This document shows positions 2,042 to 17,153 of a DNA stretch of 18,574 bases, one piece after another. Each line of letters starts with the position of its first letter. Within the stretch, counting starts at the first letter, position 1. Below the pieces are notes generated by a model. It ran no database searches. It was not told the DNA's origin and was given only the letters and a program-made list of their open reading frames with translations. Origin of the DNA: a virus (taxonomy: Duplodnaviria; Heunggongvirae; Uroviricota; Caudoviricetes); IMG/VR virus record IMGVR_UViG_2802429219_000011, positions 1 to 18,574 of that record; one strand, written 5' to 3'. Made by a program: the position numbers and the translations under genes.

Positions 2042-2117
<76 letters not shown>

Positions 2118-2120
2118 ATA

Positions 2121-2196
<76 letters not shown>

Positions 2197-2509: not shown

Positions 2510-2538
2510 AATATATGCCTTTTAATCTACTTTTGCAA
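2510..2538 (-). promoter_or_regulatory. Candidate late promoter (pR'-like) overlapping the 3' end of the putative Q gene
   Basis: On the minus strand TTGCAA (2538-2533), 17-nt spacer, TATATT (2515-2510), about 50-70 nt upstream of the tR'-like terminator, mirroring the lambda pR'-6S-tR' arrangement. Confidence 0.35.
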
Positions 2539-3211
2539 CACTTTGCTTTGAAAATGCCGCCTTTTGTTCTGAGCGTGTTCTCATCACAAACAATAAAGCC
2601 TCACTATCCAGACGGTGGAAAATGTGTTTCATTGCAACCCAGTGACCAGTAAATGTTTTGGACCAGTTTTTTGTTGTTACTCCCGCCAGTAATGCCAGTT
2701 CCTGATATTCATAAGTTTCACGCCCAGCCAGCTCACTCTTCACATCCTGTGCCGCCAGCCAGATTAATTTTTTCAGGCGCTCCAGCGTTTTCCCTGCAAT
2801 TTTTCTGGTACCGGATTGGGCGTTAAATTCATTCCACACCCACTGTGTTATCGCAATCTGGTGTTCCCAGCAAATGCTGCCGCTGTAACACCACAGCAAC
2901 CAGGCTTTATGGTGCTCTTCAAGAGACAGAACTGCCCGTCGCCATGATGATGTCGAAAACTCAACCTGACTTACCAGAGGAATTGACGTCCCCTTTGCCA
3001 GCGATTGTTTCCCCGGGATTGGTGGATTATCCCGCGTGACCATTTTTCCAGTCACTTCATCGCGGTACCGGATTTTTTTACGCCTGTAACGCCCTGTATC
3101 GAACATGGCATTCTCCAGCCAGGCTTCAAGCTGGCCTTTTGTTGCCCCACTCAAATCGGCGGTGGCGATAATGAGCTGCTCACGAACAAACTGTAAATAC
3201 TGGTTATTCAT
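2522..3211 (-). CDS. Putative late-gene antiterminator Q (positional call; family not confirmed)
   Basis: ATG at 3211-3209 overlaps the rusA stop (ATGA). 229 aa, lying between rusA and the pR'/tR'-like elements and tRNAs, exactly where lambdoid Q sits. No Cys4 zinc motif is visible, so it is not lambda-type Q; the family is uncertain. Confidence 0.45.
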   Translation of the reverse strand: MNNQYLQFVREQLIIATADLSGATKGQLEAWLENAMFDTGRYRRKKIRYRDEVTGKMVTRDNPPIPGKQSLAKGTSIPLVSQVEFSTSSWRRAVLSLEEHHKAWLLWCYSGSICWEHQIAITQWVWNEFNAQSGTRKIAGKTLERLKKLIWLAAQDVKSELAGRETYEYQELALLAGVTTKNWSKTFTGHWVAMKHIFHRLDSEALLFVMRTRSEQKAAFSKQSVAKVD

Positions 3212-3567
3212 GCGCACTCCAGTTCTGTGATTTTTATCCCCAACCGACCACCAGGAACAGGCAGACCGCGCACAATATTAATTTCATCAAACTGCTCGTC
3301 GTCTATGAGTAGTCCCGCATGCGTCAGCGCATCCAGTAGTGCTTTCAGGATATTGTCCAAGTCACGACGGCGCTTATCCGGTGGCTCTGCAATAATCTTT
3401 ATCGCCAGCCTTCCGGACAGGTTTAATTTCAGTCGCTGCTGGCGAACAATAAGTGCCACATCCCGGCGATAACGCTCACCGGCTTTTGATACAAAATATG
3501 TGCTGCCACGACGTCGCCAGTAGGTGTTCACCGTCGGTGGGTAAGGCAAAACAAACTCTATACGCAT
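3208..3567 (-). CDS. rusA: RusA-family Holliday junction resolvase
   Basis: ATG at 3567-3565 with AGAGG upstream. Product contains PPTVNTYWRRRG ... PDKRRRDLDNILKALLDALTHAGLLIDDEQ ... GGRLGIKI, matching the RusA motifs (PPSNNRYY, DRRRRDLDN, DDAQ) of E. coli RusA. Confidence 0.85.
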   Translation of the reverse strand: MRIEFVLPYPPTVNTYWRRRGSTYFVSKAGERYRRDVALIVRQQRLKLNLSGRLAIKIIAEPPDKRRRDLDNILKALLDALTHAGLLIDDEQFDEINIVRGLPVPGGRLGIKITELECA

Positions 3568-3579
3568 CAGTAACCTCTT

Positions 3580-4635
3580 TTACCCGAGCACGCCGGTTGC
3601 AAAGGCGTGATCAAGAAAACGAAAAATTAAATCAACCTGGGAACCATGCTTTTCTTCGAACGCCAGCGGATCCGCATGAAGCTCGTTGTGATGCTCCCGA
3701 CACAGCGGTAGTGTGAAAATATCGTGGGATTTTGTTCCCATTCCGCCCTGACCATGACCAATCAGGTGATGGGGATCGTCGGCTGGCTTACCACAACACG
3801 CGCACGGCTGTGTCTTTACCCAGCGCGTGTATTTCTCGTTAACCCAGCGGCGACGTTTAGGTCGTTTCATGAAAGATTCCGGAGACTCCGGATCAACGGC
3901 AATGCTGACCACTGTCTTTTCCTGTGGTGGGTTCTGTTGCTGGTGCTGGTGGACGTGAGGCGGTAGCGCAATATTTTTTGTACGCTGCTTCAGTATACTG
4001 GTGGCGGTCTGTTCTCCCGGTATGATGTCGCTTTCGCGGTACACAGAGCGGATTTTTTCCTCTCGTACCCCCAGAGAGCGACGTAATACTGCCTCCGGTA
4101 GTGCGTCCGCCACCTGATTGCAGACCGCCCACCAAGATAATTCAGCCAGCGATAATTCCCGCTCCTGCGCACCGCTTATTGCGTGACGGATGACGTCAAT
4201 CATCCATGCTGTCAGGTTTTGTTGAGCAAGTTGCTCAAGTGATTCTGAGGTCTGGTCACGCAGTTGGTTGTCGCAGTGCCAGCACAACACCATCGCGCCG
4301 GTACCGTAACGATGTATGACGGTTTCGCTGTGATGGTAGTCACCATGAGGCCACTGGCAGGATTTAACATGACGCAGGAGCCAGTCAGACAGTGCACCAG
4401 CGCCGCCGGCAGCACGAATCACCCGCTCATCGCTGAAAAATGGCAGTAATGATTTATCCTCCGCCAACGGCTGGCGAACGGCAGGAGCAACTCCGGACGG
4501 CAGCCCGCGCATGCTTTTCGGTTCAGGCTCCACCAGCACACGCCCCTGCATAAACAAAGGCATCGCATCAGGACCGGGCCTGAAAAGTACAATCCCCAGG
4601 CGGTGAGCAATTTCAGGAGTCACTAATACCCTCAC
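3580..4635 (-). CDS. DUF968-type lambdoid prophage protein (YdfU-like) with a C-terminal HNH-like motif
   Basis: GTG start at 4635 immediately after the upstream stop (internal ATG alternatives exist). C-terminus PCACCGKPADDPHHLIGHGQGG ... LCREHHNELHA has a Cys pair plus HH...N...H spacing as in HNH-type zinc-binding nucleases. N-terminus resembles Qin YdfU as I recall it. Confidence 0.65.
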   Translation of the reverse strand: MRVLVTPEIAHRLGIVLFRPGPDAMPLFMQGRVLVEPEPKSMRGLPSGVAPAVRQPLAEDKSLLPFFSDERVIRAAGGAGALSDWLLRHVKSCQWPHGDYHHSETVIHRYGTGAMVLCWHCDNQLRDQTSESLEQLAQQNLTAWMIDVIRHAISGAQERELSLAELSWWAVCNQVADALPEAVLRRSLGVREEKIRSVYRESDIIPGEQTATSILKQRTKNIALPPHVHQHQQQNPPQEKTVVSIAVDPESPESFMKRPKRRRWVNEKYTRWVKTQPCACCGKPADDPHHLIGHGQGGMGTKSHDIFTLPLCREHHNELHADPLAFEEKHGSQVDLIFRFLDHAFATGVLG

Positions 4636-5014: not shown

Positions 5015-5443
5015 TTAAGCTGAGTCCGGCGAATACCAGGGGAAATAAATATCGCTTAACGACGTGTGCTTAAGAACAGAGTCCACCGCCAATTTTAACG
5101 TCAACGACATGAAATTCTCAAAATACCATGAATTTTTCACAAAGAATTTTTCATCGATCAACTCTCCATTCATGATATCAAAGTCCGTAATCAGCTCCAT
5201 CTTTAGCTCAAAAGAGGGTTCTTCATCCCCGGCACCATCTCTATCGGGATACCCTTTTATCGATGGCGAAAATCCAATCCGGAACCAACAAGTACCATCA
5301 TCATCGCGCCCCGAAGAAAATTTAACTTCCTCGATCGAGACCTTAAAAAACCCTCCATCATCACTAGTGTTATCCTTGAAACTACTGGAAACAATATCGA
5401 AACCAGCATACTTAATATTTTGTAACATCAGTGACGCATCCAT
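5015..5443 (-). CDS. Acidic hypothetical protein (orf142), third gene of the hicAB block
   Basis: ATG at 5443 (AGAGG 11 nt upstream), or ATG at 5428-5426 overlapping the hicB stop (TGATG). Asp/Glu-rich with no motif I recognise. Lies in a visibly AT-rich stretch. An antisense ORF (5064-5489 +) also exists, so strand assignment rests on operon context. Confidence 0.45.
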   Translation of the reverse strand: MDASLMLQNIKYAGFDIVSSSFKDNTSDDGGFFKVSIEEVKFSSGRDDDGTCWFRIGFSPSIKGYPDRDGAGDEEPSFELKMELITDFDIMNGELIDEKFFVKNSWYFENFMSLTLKLAVDSVLKHTSLSDIYFPWYSPDSA

Positions 5444-5904
5444 CGCTCACCAGCCTCTTTCTTTTTTGTTCTTGCTGAAGGGGAAATGACATAACCAAAA
5501 GAGAATGCTTTTTCCCAAACGAATGTATCTGTCGTTTCTTCGCTTTCCGAATGAGAATGAACTTCTTTTTTGTCAGCAATCTTTTCTTCGATAGCTTTAC
5601 GCACATAATCATTAAGCGTCGTCTTATCCGCCATTGCAGCCAAAAACGCTTTCTTATGAAGATCGCGACCAATTCTGATGTTAAAAGTACCACTCATTGG
5701 TTTATCAGGAGATTTCCCTAACTGCTTGCATGTGTCGAGATAATCTGTAACAGCTTCTTCAAAAGCCGCCCTTAACCCATCCAGTGTTTCCGCTTCGTAG
5801 GTTACAACATCGTTTACGCACTGAATTTTCCCATGAAGTATGTTATCTTCAAGTGAAACCTCAATGCTGCCAAAATAACCTTTATAACTCAGCACATTAC
5901 TCAT
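5428..5904 (-). CDS. hicB: HicB-family antitoxin (HicB N-domain plus RHH-like segment) with an unusual ~45-aa C-terminal extension
   Basis: ATG at 5904-5902 lies inside the last codons of hicA. Product begins MSNVLSYKGYFGSIEVS ... YEAETLDGLRAAFEEAVTDYLDTC ... KPMSGTFNIRIGRDLHKKA, the canonical HicB pattern (YKGY-GS ... P-KP-SG-F-R----LH-K). The ORF is also open from an upstream ATG at 5919. Confidence 0.75.
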   Translation of the reverse strand: MSNVLSYKGYFGSIEVSLEDNILHGKIQCVNDVVTYEAETLDGLRAAFEEAVTDYLDTCKQLGKSPDKPMSGTFNIRIGRDLHKKAFLAAMADKTTLNDYVRKAIEEKIADKKEVHSHSESEETTDTFVWEKAFSFGYVISPSARTKKKEAGERWMRH

Positions 5905-6145
5905 AACTATCAATCTCATCCAAAAGATTTTTCACTTCTTTAAGCACATATCCTTTAACAATATTGCCAGGATGTGGGCAATGAAAAGCCACAAGCCTTC
6001 CATTAGCATTGGTAAACTTCCTTCTTGAGCCTGAACCGGTAAGCATTTCGAAACCATAATGCCCAAGCAACGTCACGAGTTCATCCCATGTAAAATCCTT
6101 TGGAAGCTGATTCAGACGCCACCTCAACTTCTCTTTTTTGCTCAT
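5897..6145 (-). CDS. hicA: HicA-family mRNA interferase toxin
   Basis: ATG at 6145-6143. Product contains GFEMLTGSGSRRKFTNANGRLVAFHCPHPGNIVKGYVLKEVKNLL, matching the HicA/YcfA-like core (G-x-GS-x-R-x-F ... HxPHPG ... LL). Confidence 0.75.
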   Translation of the reverse strand: MSKKEKLRWRLNQLPKDFTWDELVTLLGHYGFEMLTGSGSRRKFTNANGRLVAFHCPHPGNIVKGYVLKEVKNLLDEIDSYE

Positions 6146-8510: not shown

Positions 8511-8939
8511 TCACAGTACCGCCTCCTGAAAATTACCCTGATAGAAAGCCAGTACACGCTGCATAGCTTCGCTCTTCCGGCACTCGCGACAGATTATGTT
8601 CAGATGTCTGTCGTAGCGGCGTATTTCTCCGTCTGGTAACTTTCGAATCAGTGTCTGGTCAGTTGTTTTCTCCGGTGTCTTACGCCATTCACGATACGCC
8701 TGCTCTGATGCAAAAACACCGTATTCCCCGGACATGTATAAATCACCACAAGCCAGTACATCCACAAGGCAGCGTCGGACCGAATGCCAGCCAGCTCCCG
8801 TCGCTCTCTCCAGTTGCGACATCGTCATGCGTTCATTTTTGCGTACCAACCCGATAATTCGTGCCTTCAGCTCTTCCCGCTGTTCGGGTGTAAAAACTTT
8901 TGCCACAAGCCCTCCTGAAAAATCACCTTCACAATTCAT
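8511..8939 (-). CDS. ren: Ren-like protein
   Basis: Start ATG overlaps the P-like stop (ATGA), as for lambda P/ren. C-terminus ICRECRKSEAMQRVLAFY parallels lambda Ren FKECRQSAAMKRVLAVY as I recall it. Confidence 0.55.
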   Translation of the reverse strand: MNCEGDFSGGLVAKVFTPEQREELKARIIGLVRKNERMTMSQLERATGAGWHSVRRCLVDVLACGDLYMSGEYGVFASEQAYREWRKTPEKTTDQTLIRKLPDGEIRRYDRHLNIICRECRKSEAMQRVLAFYQGNFQEAVL

Positions 8940-9601
8940 ACAAAACCAGCTGCCTTCCGGCGTTCATACTCCCGTTTCAGCAACTCAATTGGTGTTGGCC
9001 CCGACGGGCGTTTGGGTGCCGCCAGTTGTCGCCGGACTGGCGGAACGCTCAGGCCGTTACTAACATGCTTTGCCCATTTCGTCAGTTGCCGTTCTGCAAG
9101 CCGTTTTAACTCCCCTTCGGTCATCTGCCGCTCAATCCCCTTTGAACGCATCTCGAGACAAATGTGATACAGCACAGGCTGAGGCCACGGATATTTATCG
9201 CTTCCGTCGTATCGCCAGGACTCATTGCGCCAGCGGCGGTACTCCTCCATCACAGCATCCACCGTCAGACCAAATGGATTTGCCCCACTCTCCAAAATCA
9301 GCGCCACAAACTCAGCCAGGTCCGGAGGCCATGTTTCACCCGCCCGGCAGCGATCCATGCACTGGCGGCAGACCTGCCGGATTTGCTGCTCAGTCATCGC
9401 GCCAATCTGTGCAATCCAGAGCTTCGAAGGTGCGGCCCCGTTCTTCTGGGTCCAGCGGTTCGAATAAACCTCCCCCATGAGTTCCCACAACTTCCACGCC
9501 GTTTCCGTCGCGGATAAATCCGTTTTCACGTTCCCACTGCTCACGTGCTGCCCGAATTTCCTGAACTGCCCGTGATGCGGTGCCACCTGGCGTTGCTGCA
9601 T
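8936..9601 (-). CDS. Lambda P-like replication protein (helicase loader)
   Basis: ATG at 9601-9599 with GGGGG upstream; 221 aa. The block WPPDLAEFVAL ... YPWPQPVLYHICLEM ... MTEGELKRLAERQL parallels lambda P (FLPSPGQFVAW ... YPWKSNAHYWLV ... LTDAELRRKAADEL). Its first ~70 codons overlap the O-like frame. Confidence 0.7.
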   Translation of the reverse strand: MQQRQVAPHHGQFRKFGQHVSSGNVKTDLSATETAWKLWELMGEVYSNRWTQKNGAAPSKLWIAQIGAMTEQQIRQVCRQCMDRCRAGETWPPDLAEFVALILESGANPFGLTVDAVMEEYRRWRNESWRYDGSDKYPWPQPVLYHICLEMRSKGIERQMTEGELKRLAERQLTKWAKHVSNGLSVPPVRRQLAAPKRPSGPTPIELLKREYERRKAAGFV

Positions 9602-10430
9602 GGTTTACCCCCTTGCTGACTGGTTTAACCTGCGCCCTGACGTGATTTACGTGACGGGCGAATTTCTGCTCCCACTGAATCTGCGTAAATACTTTCCCCT
9701 CCGCTGCCCAGTAGTCCCGGAAGGCGGCAAGTTCAGCAGGTGTAAATTCTGTCTCCGGCAAAGCCATCCCCCACAACGCAGCCCGTCGTCGAAAATCCCG
9801 TGACGGATACCAGCTATCGGTCATCGGAAATTTTCCGATGGGTTCGCTCAGGCCATCCAGGAATACAGGGGGTGCTGCCTGTAACGACAAAACTTCCTGC
9901 TCACTGGTCGGAGCACTCTCGCGTGCGTTATGTGTGGGGGTTAGATCTTTGGGTTCCTTTGGGTTCCGTGATCCGTTTTTGGGTGTCTTTGATGGAAAAT
10001 TTGGGTGTCTTTGGTTATTTTCCATGCAGTTAAGAGTTCCGTTTTTGGGTCTGTTTTGTGCTGAAACATAACCATTTTCGGTACTGTTTTTATTAACAGC
10101 ACCAATTTTACCCACCTTTAAAGACTCCCGTTTTTGGGTGTATTCAGGCTCGGCAACACTTTCTTCTACACCGATAAGTCGGTACACCACAATTTGCTTT
10201 GTTCTGCCTTTTCTCTCACCGGTATCAACAATTAACCCAATCTCCATCAGGTGTCGTAAGCTGTCCTGCACAGTCTTTTTGTTCAGTTCCGTTACTTCTG
10301 CCAGGGCAGATACAGACGGGTATGCACACAAATCGGCACCGCACATATCAGCAAGCCAGGTCAATACTGACTTACTGGATGAACTGCCGGTTTTCACCTT
10401 TTTAGCCCATCGTAGTGCATCGATACTCAT
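9390..10430 (-). CDS. Phage replication initiator (O-like): N-terminal winged-HTH domain and DnaT-like C-terminal region
   Basis: The ORF track starts at a TTG (10505); I prefer the ATG at 10430-10428 (MSIDALRWAKKV...) preceded by GGGG. The N-terminus matches the phage replication-protein HTH pattern (LTWLADMCGADL ... PSVSALAEVTELNKKTVQDSLRHL). Contains the iteron array. Confidence 0.65.
   Translation of the reverse strand: MSIDALRWAKKVKTGSSSSKSVLTWLADMCGADLCAYPSVSALAEVTELNKKTVQDSLRHLMEIGLIVDTGERKGRTKQIVVYRLIGVEESVAEPEYTQKRESLKVGKIGAVNKNSTENGYVSAQNRPKNGTLNCMENNQRHPNFPSKTPKNGSRNPKEPKDLTPTHNARESAPTSEQEVLSLQAAPPVFLDGLSEPIGKFPMTDSWYPSRDFRRRAALWGMALPETEFTPAELAAFRDYWAAEGKVFTQIQWEQKFARHVNHVRAQVKPVSKGVNHAATPGGTASRAVQEIRAAREQWERENGFIRDGNGVEVVGTHGGGLFEPLDPEERGRTFEALDCTDWRDD
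9948..10146. repeat. Iteron array (putative origin of replication) inside the O-like gene
   Basis: TTTGGGT core at 9948, 9958, 9978, 10000, 10044 and 10133. Longer copies CCGTTTTTGGGTGTCTTTG (9973-9991), AAATTTGGGTGTCTTTGG (9997-10014), TCCGTTTTTGGGTCTGTTTTG (10038-10058), CCCGTTTTTGGGTGTATTC (10128-10146). A moderately AT-rich stretch lies at 10061-10120. Confidence 0.6.
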
Positions 10431-14678: not shown

Positions 14679-17153
14679 ATGAGTAAAGTCTTTATTTGCG
14701 CCGCCATTCCGGACGAACAGGCAATAAAGGAAGAAGGTGCAGTTGCTGTAGCCACTGCCATTGAAGCCGGTGACGAACGCCGCGCCCGTGCCAAATTTAC
14801 CTGGCAATTCCTGGAGCAATATCCGGCTGCTCAGGACTGCGCTTATAAATTTCTTGTCTGCGAGGATAAACCCGGCATGCCCCGCCCTGCTATCGACTCC
14901 TGGGATACCGAATATATGCAGGAAAACCGCTGGGATGAGGAATCCGCTTCCTTTATTCCGGTCGAACCAGAATCCGATCCGATGAACGTCAATTTTGACA
15001 AGCTGTCCCTTGAAGTACAGAACGCGGTCCTGGTTAAGTTCGGTACATGTGAAAACATCACCGTTGATATGGTGATTAGCGCACAGGAGTTACTGCAGGA
15101 AGACGTGGCGACATTCGACGGGCATATCGTTGAAGCACTGATGAAAACACCAGAAATTAACGCTATGTATCCGGAACGCAAACTGTTCGCTATCGGATGG
15201 GGTAAACACAAATGTAAGCCGGGTGCCAAATGGCCCGAAATTCAGGCTGAATTACGTAACTGGAAAAAACGGCAGGACGCGGAGCGCAAAGAGACTGGAA
15301 AATACACGTCTGTTGTTGATCTCGCCCGCACCAGAGTCAACCGACAGCACACTGAAAACTCAGCAGAAAAAATCCCCCCTGTCACTGCAGTTATTCGTCG
15401 CGAATACAAGCAGACATGGAAAACATTGGATGATGAACTGGCCTACGCTCTGTGGCCTGGTGACATTGATGCCGGAAACATTGACGGCAGCATCCATCGC
15501 TGGGCAAAAAATGAAGTTATCGAGAGCGATCGCGAAGACTGGAAGCGTATTTCCGCATCAATGCGCAAACAGCCTGATGCCATTCGCTATGACCGTCAGA
15601 CTATTTTTGGCCTTGTCCGTGAGCGTCCGATCGACATTCACAAGGATCCCGTGGCACTGAACAAATACATCACTGAATACCTGGCGACAAAGGGCGTGTT
15701 TGAGGATGAAGAAACAGACCAGAACACTGCTGATATTCTCCAGCCGTCAGCAGCACAAACTGATGCAGTGGAAACTGAAGTATCTGATACCAAAAAAAAT
15801 GAAAGCGCGCTGGAAACTGAACCATCTGTAGAGCGTGAGGGGCCGTTCTACTTCCTCTTCACCGATAAGGATGGCGAAAAATATGGTCGTGCAAACAAAC
15901 TTTCTGGTCTGAATAAGGCGCTGGCTGCCGGGGCTACTGAAATCACGAAAGAAGAATATTTTGCCCGCAAAAACGGCACATACTCAGGTTCACAACAAAA
16001 TACTGGTGCATCTGACACGACCGCACAACCAGAGCCGGTAAAAGTTACCGCTGACGAAGTAAACAAAATTATGCAGGCAGTCAGCCAGCCTGACGCCAAT
16101 CAGTTGCTTGCTGCCTCTCGCGGAGAATTTGTTGCAGGGATTAGCGACCCGAATGATCCGAAATGGGTGAAGGGGATTGAAACCCGCGATTCTGTGTACC
16201 AGAACCAGCAAGAAACGGAACAGAACGACCAGAAAGCGGAACAAAACAGCCAAAATGCGTTACAAAACGAGCCAGAAACGAAACAATCCGAACCAGTAGC
16301 GCAACAAGAACCAGAAAAAACCTGCACCGCCTGCGGTCAGAGCGGTGGCGGCAACTGCCCTGATTGTGGCGCGGTGATGGGCAACGCAACATATCAGGAA
16401 ACATTCGATGAAGAGAATCAGGTTGAAGTTCAGGAAAATGATCCGGAGGAAATGGAAGGCGCTGAACATCCACACAAGGGGGACACTAGCGGCGCTCAGG
16501 ACCACGCCAGCGATAGTGAAACTGGTGAGGCGGCAGATCCCTTAATTAATGTGAATGGTCATCATAAAAGCACATCCACCAGCAGAGTGTGGTACCACCT
16601 GATGATCGACCTTGAAACGATGGGTAAAAAAAGTAATGCCCCCATCGTGGTTATTGGTGCTGTGTTCTTCGATCCGCAGACCGGGGAAATCGGGCCAACA
16701 TTTTATATCGTTATCAGCCTGGTTGACGCTATGGACACGGGTGCTGTACCTGATGGTTCCACCATCGAATGGTGGCTTGCTCAGTCCAGCGAAGCCAGAT
16801 CTGCAATTTTAGTTGATCAGGTAAAACTGGTTGACGCTCTTATTCAATTTCGGGAATTCATCAATGAGTACTCGAATGAAAAATTCGTTCAGGTATGGGG
16901 CAATGGTGCAACTTTCGACAACACTATTTTACGAACCTCGTACGAACGCCTGAACATCCCCTGCCCGTGGCGTTACTACAACGATCGCGATGTACGTACA
17001 ATCGTTGAACTGGGAAAAACTATCGACTTCGATGCCAGAACAGTTATTCCATTTGAAGGCGTGCGCCACCATGCGCTGGATGATGCCCGTCACCAGGCGA
17101 AATACGTTTCAGCAATCTGGCAAAAACTGATCCCGAATCAGGCTGATTTTTAA
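14679..17153 (+). CDS. Large early protein (824 aa): N-terminal YdfE-like region, Q/E-rich low-complexity linker, C4 zinc-ribbon motif, C-terminal DEDDh-type 3'-5' exonuclease domain
   Basis: C-terminal motifs MIDLETMG (Exo I, D-x-E), WGNGATFDNTIL (Exo II) and HHALDDARHQ (Exo III, H ... D). CTACGQSGGGNCPDCG gives C-x2-C-x8-C-x2-C. GAGG 11 nt upstream of the ATG. Confidence 0.8.
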   Translation: MSKVFICAAIPDEQAIKEEGAVAVATAIEAGDERRARAKFTWQFLEQYPAAQDCAYKFLVCEDKPGMPRPAIDSWDTEYMQENRWDEESASFIPVEPESDPMNVNFDKLSLEVQNAVLVKFGTCENITVDMVISAQELLQEDVATFDGHIVEALMKTPEINAMYPERKLFAIGWGKHKCKPGAKWPEIQAELRNWKKRQDAERKETGKYTSVVDLARTRVNRQHTENSAEKIPPVTAVIRREYKQTWKTLDDELAYALWPGDIDAGNIDGSIHRWAKNEVIESDREDWKRISASMRKQPDAIRYDRQTIFGLVRERPIDIHKDPVALNKYITEYLATKGVFEDEETDQNTADILQPSAAQTDAVETEVSDTKKNESALETEPSVEREGPFYFLFTDKDGEKYGRANKLSGLNKALAAGATEITKEEYFARKNGTYSGSQQNTGASDTTAQPEPVKVTADEVNKIMQAVSQPDANQLLAASRGEFVAGISDPNDPKWVKGIETRDSVYQNQQETEQNDQKAEQNSQNALQNEPETKQSEPVAQQEPEKTCTACGQSGGGNCPDCGAVMGNATYQETFDEENQVEVQENDPEEMEGAEHPHKGDTSGAQDHASDSETGEAADPLINVNGHHKSTSTSRVWYHLMIDLETMGKKSNAPIVVIGAVFFDPQTGEIGPTFYIVISLVDAMDTGAVPDGSTIEWWLAQSSEARSAILVDQVKLVDALIQFREFINEYSNEKFVQVWGNGATFDNTILRTSYERLNIPCPWRYYNDRDVRTIVELGKTIDFDARTVIPFEGVRHHALDDARHQAKYVSAIWQKLIPNQADF

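Follow-up and report, generated by a model that had tools for sequence, protein, structure and literature searches.

The window analyzed here is the whole of an 18,574-bp stretch of a Caudoviricetes genome (IMG/VR record IMGVR_UViG_2802429219_000011). Its minus strand carries the gene for a replication initiator, and the part of this gene that encodes the interdomain linker contains an array of short direct repeats (iterons), which a sequence-only reading of the same DNA had taken for a likely prophage origin of replication. The N terminus of the initiator matches PHROG family phrog_1032, “replication initiation protein” (E = 2.6e-91), and remote matches were found to PHROG families named “replication initiation O-like” (E = 5.5e-12 to 1.7e-7). 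A Pfam scan (E ≤ 0.01) returned only the DnaT domain PF17948 (E = 6.5e-17), a subthreshold N-terminal HTH_36, HVO_A0114, and RP-C, the last below threshold (E = 0.0078, 16.5 bits versus a cutoff of 24.4), with no match to Phage_rep_O or Rep_3. The initiator was not assigned to the lambda O Pfam family or to the plasmid Rep families, because their profiles were not matched above threshold.

The initiator is predicted to consist of two folded domains joined by a long disordered segment. AlphaFold2 modeled residues 1 to 90 as helices with a β-hairpin wing at high confidence (predicted local distance difference test [pLDDT] of 84 to 94), and Foldseek returned generic winged-helix matches for this domain, from regulators and Rep proteins, including the Rep-DNA complex 5kbj (E of about 0.1). 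Residues K52, T53, R73, G75, and T77 are invariant in the initiator family. The DnaT-like domain at residues 201 to 267 matches PDB entries 6aep (E = 1.6e-19) and 4ou6, with E values of 1e-18 to 1e-19 and Foldseek template modeling scores of 0.88 to 0.92 on the target, but the match to DnaT chains is limited to initiator residues 194 to 270. The full-length DnaT architecture (about 179 amino acids) was not found in the initiator, the N terminus of which is a winged helix of the phrog_1032 type. The labels “primosomal protein” and “DnaT-like” cover the C-terminal domain only, and “primosomal protein” is misleading.

YdaT-like, YdaS/Cro-like, and divergent cI-like genes lie upstream of the initiator gene, and a gene for a lambda P-like helicase loader lies directly downstream of it in the early operon. 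The loader ATG at 9397 overlaps the initiator stop codon as ATGACTGA, which suggests that the two genes could be translationally coupled. The mechanically called open reading frame (ORF) of the loader (8936 to 9601, minus strand) runs 204 nt into the initiator gene, and the ATG at 9397 is its likely start. The initiator gene of the window is 98% identical to that of PPompW-type Escherichia coli prophages, yet the downstream “phage replication protein” annotated in PPompW phages is 423 bp long and is separated by a gap of 31 nt, so the partner gene seems to differ between them. The order cI-like, cro-like YdaS, YdaT-like, initiator, and P-like loader is that of a lambda-like early replication module; the gene, earlier described as O-like, has no match to the Pfam lambda O family.

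The repeats were first described as six copies of TTTGGGT, and this count is exact. The copies start at 9948, 9958, 9978, 10000, 10044, and 10133, all six on the plus strand, and the successive spacings of 10, 20, 22, 44, and 89 bp that had been given as approximate are also exact. Only two further copies occur elsewhere in the window. Dinucleotide-preserving shuffles of the surrounding 210-, 500-, and 1,041-bp segments never reached six copies (0 of 2,000 for each segment). A control that accepted any 7-mer recurring at least six times was reached in 100, 18, and 12 of 2,000 shuffles, respectively; these matches may reflect overlapping T-runs, and we consider the control invalid for this T-rich segment. 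The longer repeats, previously given as about 19 bp, are real but were resolved by the repeat finder into two overlapping families. The family CCGTTTTTGGGT has three copies plus, at 10072, a degenerate fourth without the TTTGGGT core, and the family TTTGGGTGTCTTTG has copies at 9978 and 10000. With at most one mismatch, the 12-mer CCGTTTTTGGGT has just three occurrences in the entire window, at 9973, 10039, and 10128. The repetitive peptide is present in the translation as described (NRPKNGT and KTPKNGSRNPKEPKDL), and the placement of the array in the linker-coding part of the gene was likewise confirmed: it occupies codons 96 to 162, within the predicted disordered linker and between the winged helix and the DnaT-like domain.

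On the coding (minus) strand, the iteron consensus is ACACCCAAAAACGG. Alignment with nine diverged enterobacterial homologues (ten genes in all) defined six iteron slots: three full, one variant, and two degenerate (Table 1). At least four direct repeats are thus present, four of the six slots being strong; the copies in the window have the form CCC-A5-CGG(G), and their arms are weak. Of the six TTTGGGT copies, four sit in iterons, whereas those at 9948 and 9958 belong to a separate flank element, in which Tandem Repeats Finder (TRF) identified 9947 to 9967 as a perfect 10-bp tandem duplication. The earlier inventory also missed the two degenerate slots, I2 and I3.

Table 1. Coordinates of the initiator gene, its domains, the iteron array, and adjoining features in the window
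Feature	Position	Strand	Description
Lambda P-like helicase loader gene	8936-9397	-	PF06992; phrog_109 “P-like helicase loader” (E = 9.4e-54)
Initiator (O-like) gene	9390-10430	-	346 amino acids; ATG at 10430, stop codon at 9390-9392
DnaT-like single-stranded DNA (ssDNA)-binding domain	9630-9830	-	Codons 201-267; PF17948
Predicted disordered linker	9849-10160	-	Codons 91-194; pLDDT below 50, no secondary structure; hosts the whole array
Mosaic junction	9923-9945		Below, 92% identical to Rac-type ydaU; above (array and N-terminal domain), unrelated
Flank element	9943-9968	-	CGGAACCCAAAGGAACCCAAAGATCT, i.e., CGGAACCCAAA-GGAACCCAAA-GATCT; holds TTTGGGT copies 9948 and 9958
Iteron I6	9973-9986	-	ACACCCAAAAACGG, full; terminal and best-conserved iteron
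Iteron I5	9994-10008	-	ACACCCAAATTTTCC, variant with reversed center; reads H-P-N-F; relatives carry ACACCCAATTTTGG
Iteron I4	10039-10052	-	AGACCCAAAAACGG, full; reads R-P-K-N-G
Iteron slot I3	10070-10084	-	ACCGAAAATGG (core), degenerate; relatives carry ACCGAAAACGG (alignment, repeat finder)
Least stable 40-mer of the initiator gene	10082-10121		30% GC, z = 1.7 versus the window (nearest-neighbor stability scan)
Iteron slot I2	10102-10115	-	GTGGGTAAAATTGG, degenerate; relatives carry ACACCCAAAAACGG here (alignment)
Iteron I1	10128-10141	-	ACACCCAAAAACGG(G), full; frame reads T-Q-K-R-E; only copy in the window with CCC/GGG
N-terminal winged helix-turn-helix domain	10161-10430	-	Codons 1-90; presumed iteron-binding domain

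The iteron slots are more conserved than the DNA around them. Among five diverged, representative enterobacterial genes, mean pairwise identity was 0.89 at I1 and 0.86 at I6, compared with 0.60 in the inter-iteron spacers, 0.50 in the DNA after the array, and 0.42 at third codon positions of the folded N-terminal domain. Within I6, CCCAAAAACGG is unchanged in 10 of the 10 aligned enterobacterial genes. Closer relatives gave a less clear picture. Variable sites numbered 26 of 202 in the array, 21 of 284 in the N-terminal domain, and 103 of 555 in the C-terminal part, and I4 is polymorphic in close alleles (positions 10050, 10041, and 10040), while the segment comprising I5, I6, and the flank (9946 to 10022) contains a single variable site in 77 bp among 48 alleles. 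Polymorphism among close relatives is only partly informative on constraint, since mosaic recombination confounds it and only the I5-I6-flank segment stands out.

The identity of the encoded peptide does not account for this conservation. The ACCCAAA core of the window occurs in all three reading frames, where it yields TQKR, PKNG or PKD, and HPNF or NPK, and a looser core, CC[C/G][A/G]A[A/T], was found 132, 109, and 48 times in the three frames across 82 family genes. Where linkers of distinct genes encode P-[K/E]-N-G, proline is CCC in 54 of 54 cases (versus 14% of proline codons elsewhere in the same genes), the second codon is AAA or GAA in 54 of 54, and asparagine is AAC in 54 of 54 (versus 57% elsewhere). 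Common iteron spacings in relatives are 17 to 18 nt, the former not divisible by 3. Because the core appears in three frames, synonymous codons are fixed, and the slots outconserve the spacers, the constraint on the array acts on the DNA rather than on the peptide. The peptide repeats (PKNG, TQKR, HPNF) follow from the DNA sites, and a linker that is, by prediction, disordered can accommodate them.

The sequence-only reading had named a lack of these repeats in homologous O genes as evidence against an origin; they were found to be conserved in Edwardsiella phage EPP-1, in the 10 aligned enterobacterial genes, and in most of 80 family genes. EPP-1 shares 67% nucleotide identity with the window over the N-terminal part of the gene and carries six copies of ACACCCAAAAACGG(G) in the same linker, while the C-terminal domain of its initiator is Phg_2220_C instead of DnaT-like. 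A family survey scanned one genome per species and yielded 80 loci. In most of these genes, those of Acinetobacter included, the same linker has four to seven repeats, with hardly any outside it; counted as a 12-mer with at most two mismatches, four to seven copies were present in nearly every gene. The motif CCNAAAANCGG, or CCNRAAAACGG, is nearly confined to the initiator linker in Enterobacterales, Marinobacterium, Burkholderiales, and Sphingomonadales. The iteron takes the form GTCCCAAC(A/G)(A/T)TGG in Acinetobacter and TTCCGAAAACGGAA, GCCCGAAAACGGGC, or ACCCCCAAATTTGGGGT in other lineages. Short inverted arms around an A-tract are the design shared across the family, and the terminal iteron is usually a near-palindrome, GTCCC-N6-GGGAC. 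The gene downstream of the initiator in relatives encodes a P-like loader or a DnaB helicase. In Arsenophonus nasoniae (locus L134), three extra same-strand copies of the iteron pattern lie about 1 kb upstream at 1467 to 1526, outside the initiator gene, and may represent a second array or what is left of another initiator gene; loci L107 and L139 have two extra copies each.

The flank element is distinct from the iterons and aligns with the conserved CGGAATCTAYCARGGAACC..AAAGATCT of relatives; its CGGAAC unit resembles the right arm of the iteron. Across the family, two to four CGGAAYC units follow the last iteron, 10 to 13 bp apart, and GRAAYC density is 13.5 per kb in this flank versus 1.9 per kb elsewhere in family genes. 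In Acinetobacter (loci L091 to L162, e.g., L091, L094, and L148), the same position holds CGGAATCTATCAAAGAATCTATCAATAGAATCTAAAAATAAAAA, which consists of three 12- to 13-nt direct repeats ending in an A-rich run, encodes RNLSKNLSIESKNKK, and recalls in form the 13-mer repeats of unwinding elements. Loci L115, L131, and L137 have GGAACCGTCA repeated three to four times there. In the window, GATC (Dam) sites at 9944 to 9947 and 9970 to 9973 flank the CGGAAC tandem repeat, and AAAGATCT is conserved at the array end in most enterobacterial relatives. SeqA or Dam might play a part in controlling the origin.

A mosaic junction borders the array. In megablast searches, Rac-type ydaU shared only 9390 to 9923 of the window (query positions 1 to 534), at 92% identity. 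The K-12-type ydaU of Rac was considered as a source of the repeats and rejected, as it has another N terminus and no such repeats (Rac-SA53 YdaU). The array and the N-terminal domain are coinherited with varying C-terminal domains, and the junction coincides with the edge of the array, so the DNA-binding N terminus and the array form a single exchangeable specificity module to which different C-terminal domains are joined. This N-terminal-plus-array module is present in 908 of 5,426 complete E. coli genomes, including O157:H7. Of the 993 places in E. coli that carry it, 3 are on plasmids, not chromosomes; the plasmid-borne copies could be phage-plasmids or integrated prophage fragments.

The array fits a period of about 11 bp and not one of 10.5 bp. 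AA/TT dinucleotides in 9940 to 10150 have a sharp period of 11.0 bp (power of 2.70), whereas other 211-bp windows sampled across the sequence had a power of 0.20 ± 0.21 at this period, and none reached 2.70. The family-average peak is at 11.25 bp in the linker and is not seen in the N-terminal coding part; of 72 genes, 56 had their own peak within 10.75 to 12 bp, many of these genes being related and not independent. The four strong iterons are coherent in phase at 11 bp (R = 0.97), and the six slots together less so (R = 0.77, Monte Carlo P = 0.11, not significant alone). Phasing at 10.0 to 10.5 bp was rejected (R = 0.22 to 0.43 for the six slots and 0.26 to 0.61 for the six TTTGGGT copies). 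The earlier claim of spacings near multiples of a helical turn is thus roughly right for a turn of about 11 bp but does not fit 10.5 bp, and the common spacings across the family (17 to 18, 24, 32 to 33, 46, 65, and 78) followed no simple multiple-of-a-turn rule. By analogy with ori-lambda, the phased A-tracts fit intrinsic curvature. The moderately AT-rich stretch that had been reported next to the repeats is real but modest, the best 40-mer (10082 to 10121) being a weak candidate for an unwinding element. No DnaA boxes, integration host factor (IHF) sites, sigma-70 promoters, or terminators were found around the array.

Taken together, these observations make it highly probable that a lambdoid (PPompW/Rac-like) E. 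coli prophage has its replication origin here, with the array, situated within the linker-coding segment of the initiator gene, as the part to which the initiator binds. The ori-lambda-like interpretation of the sequence-only reading is supported by repeat conservation in homologous genes, by constraint at the DNA level, and by the lambda-like gene context, and by analogy the origin would be lambda-type in both function and layout. We infer iteron binding, bending, melting, and helicase loading as follows. The early rightward operon (cro-like, YdaT-like, initiator, and P-like loader) would be transcribed through the site, and the winged-helix N-terminal domain would bind the iterons, probably as dimers, because the iterons have short inverted arms (CCC/GG(G)) around an A-tract. 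The A-tracts, phased at about 11 bp, and the bound protein would together bend or wrap the DNA, much like the lambda O-some. A nearby, easily melted segment would then open, and either 10082 to 10121 or the CGGAAC repeat flank could be the one. The DnaT-like domain may hold ssDNA, contact the P-like loader, or do both, and the loader would deliver host DnaB.

Several points weigh against this interpretation. The case for an origin is weakest at the AT-rich element: no strong one was found in the stability scan and composition profile of the gene, the candidate lies inside the array and not beyond the last iteron as in lambda, and the Rac-like segment, which begins past I6 and the flank repeats, makes the DNA there GC-rich in the window. 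Dyad symmetry is weak in the window's own iterons, as only I1 has CCC/GGG, and not every copy may function, given the two degenerate slots and the variation in I4. The prophage itself may be defective. Many of the family sequences are related, so that gene counts are not counts of independent events. The searchable literature yielded no experimental binding or origin firing for this initiator family. Nor was a description of this origin or iteron found in the literature, the search of which did not extend to closed-access work such as the 2006 review by Weigel and Seitz.

The repeats might instead bind the initiator mainly for regulation, with the true origin elsewhere. They could then act in autoregulation, in copy control of the titration or handcuffing type, or in the incompatibility and exclusion of related phages. 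Conservation at the DNA level and coinheritance with the winged helix are equally compatible with every initiator-binding role, no clear AT-rich unwinding element adjoins the array, and the iterons of plasmids act in control as well as in initiation (PMC5043065). However, the 18.6-kb window contains no other array of this motif, the motif is found only in the linker in nearly all family loci, and the intragenic sites of lambda and Stx (Shiga toxin) phages are the origin, so we consider a mainly regulatory array unlikely. That the repeats serve some other protein, either a host factor or a phage regulator such as a YdaT-like or cI-like protein, with no connection to the DNA-binding domain of the initiator, is more improbable still. 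The GATC sites at 9944 and 9970 and the conservation of the flank GATCT in the enterobacterial clade would be in keeping with such a role, but no DnaA-box or IHF consensus lies near the array, which tracks the N-terminal domain from Enterobacterales to Sphingomonadales despite varying neighbors and C-terminal domains.

It could also be argued that the DNA repeats only mirror a low-complexity peptide of the PKNG type, through selection on the protein or neutral in-frame duplication in a disordered linker. The peptide is indeed repetitive, its linker is predicted to be disordered, and 9947 to 9967 is a recent, perfect 10-bp tandem duplication. Against this, the same core in three frames produces the unrelated peptides TQKR, PKNG, and HPNF, synonymous positions are fixed (54 of 54) at each of three codons, a 17-nt spacing would not preserve the frame, and conservation is higher in the slots than in the intervening spacers. 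This explanation, which we regard as scarcely credible, is largely refuted by the analysis of frames and codons.

Other features of the window lie outside the array. A DUF977 gene (8511 to 8939) directly follows the P-like gene. Between the replication genes and Q are a HicB-family antitoxin-like ORF (5428 to 5919, minus strand) and a DUF968 ORF (3580 to 4635, minus strand) with a weak, subthreshold HNH-nuclease match. Just downstream of the Q antiterminator gene (2522 to 3217), tRNA-Gly(tcc) and tRNA-Thr(tgt) are encoded at 2043 to 2196 (minus strand); PPompW phages carry another tRNA set (Arg, Lys, and Met) at the equivalent place. An 824-amino-acid ORF (14679 to 17153) with an Rv2179c-like 3′-5′ exonuclease domain contains an in-frame 21-nt tandem repeat, AACGAGCCAGAAACGGAACAA, at 16203 to 16307 (five copies, 71% matches, seven codons per unit).

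A specialist would expect an origin at this position, and the lambda-like arrangement is expected too. What goes beyond expectation is the family-wide grammar of the array, the presence of CGGAAYC repeats instead of a plain AT-rich block, and dual coding in three frames. We tentatively raise the possibility, which we hold to be somewhat less than even, that the window is one case of an undescribed class of proteobacterial phage and prophage origins associated with HTH_36/phrog_1032 initiators. Such origins would have four to seven CCC-(A-tract)-GGG iterons in any frame of the linker and a palindromic terminal iteron, followed by two to four CGGAAYC repeats at 10 to 13 bp, with A-tracts at a period of about 11.25 bp. 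The CGGAAYC repeats may be a strand-opening or strand-capture site in place of the AT-rich block. If this is true, the PKNG, PENG, and TENG repeats in thousands of database proteins would be the translated shadow of origin DNA. The array in any case cautions against taking PKNG-type repeats for a protein motif. It is a clean case of a cis-acting DNA element that constrains a protein in all three frames, with a disordered linker as a tolerant host. It would also pin a candidate origin onto an E. coli prophage module whose gene bears no annotation other than “DnaT-like ssDNA-binding domain-containing protein” or “primosomal protein.” As a signature, CCC-A-tract-GGG repeats within the linker of an HTH_36-type initiator could help to find origins in many unannotated prophages of Enterobacterales, Acinetobacter, and Burkholderiales, and origin fragments might be of use in phage-derived replicons or as replication-interfering decoys.

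The closest parallels in layout are ori-lambda, in gene O, and the origins of the Stx phages 933W and P27, each with six iterons. All of these likewise occupy the central part of the initiator gene, with the DNA-binding domain encoded on one side and the C-terminal domain on the other. Lambda iterons are inverted repeats that contain A-tracts and bind O dimers (PMC5043065, PMC7466680). Those origins and the array of the window both have four to six direct repeats with inverted arms around an A-tract and curved DNA, the curvature being putative in the window, and both are located in an early rightward operon after cro/cII analogues and before a P-type helicase loader. Unlike lambda, the iteron here is shorter (about 12 to 16 bp, CCC-A5-CGG) and unrelated in sequence, the initiator falls outside the Pfam lambda O family and has a C-terminal domain of the DnaT-like, ssDNA-binding type, and the last iteron is followed by a conserved CGGAAYC run and not by a distinct 40-bp AT-rich block. 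The iteron plasmids R6K, RK2, F, P1, and pSC101 resemble the window in their direct-repeat arrays, winged-helix initiators, and phase of about 11 or 22 bp (PMC5043065), but their iterons are intergenic and bind Rep monomers, whereas those described here are intragenic and have a dyad character that suggests dimers. E. coli DnaT (primosomal protein I) has a homologous C-terminal ssDNA-binding domain (PF17948; PDB 4ou6 and 6aep); the phage protein lacks the DnaT N-terminal domain and has instead a winged helix predicted to bind the origin. The Rac prophage, for which an active origin, oriJ, is known, has a YdaU protein whose DnaT-like C-terminal half is encoded by DNA with 92% nucleotide identity to the window and occupies the same position in a ydaS-ydaT-ydaU-type operon. 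However, the N-terminal domain of Rac-type YdaU is unrelated and ACCCAAAAACGG repeats are absent, so the specificity module of N-terminal domain and iterons has been exchanged relative to Rac.

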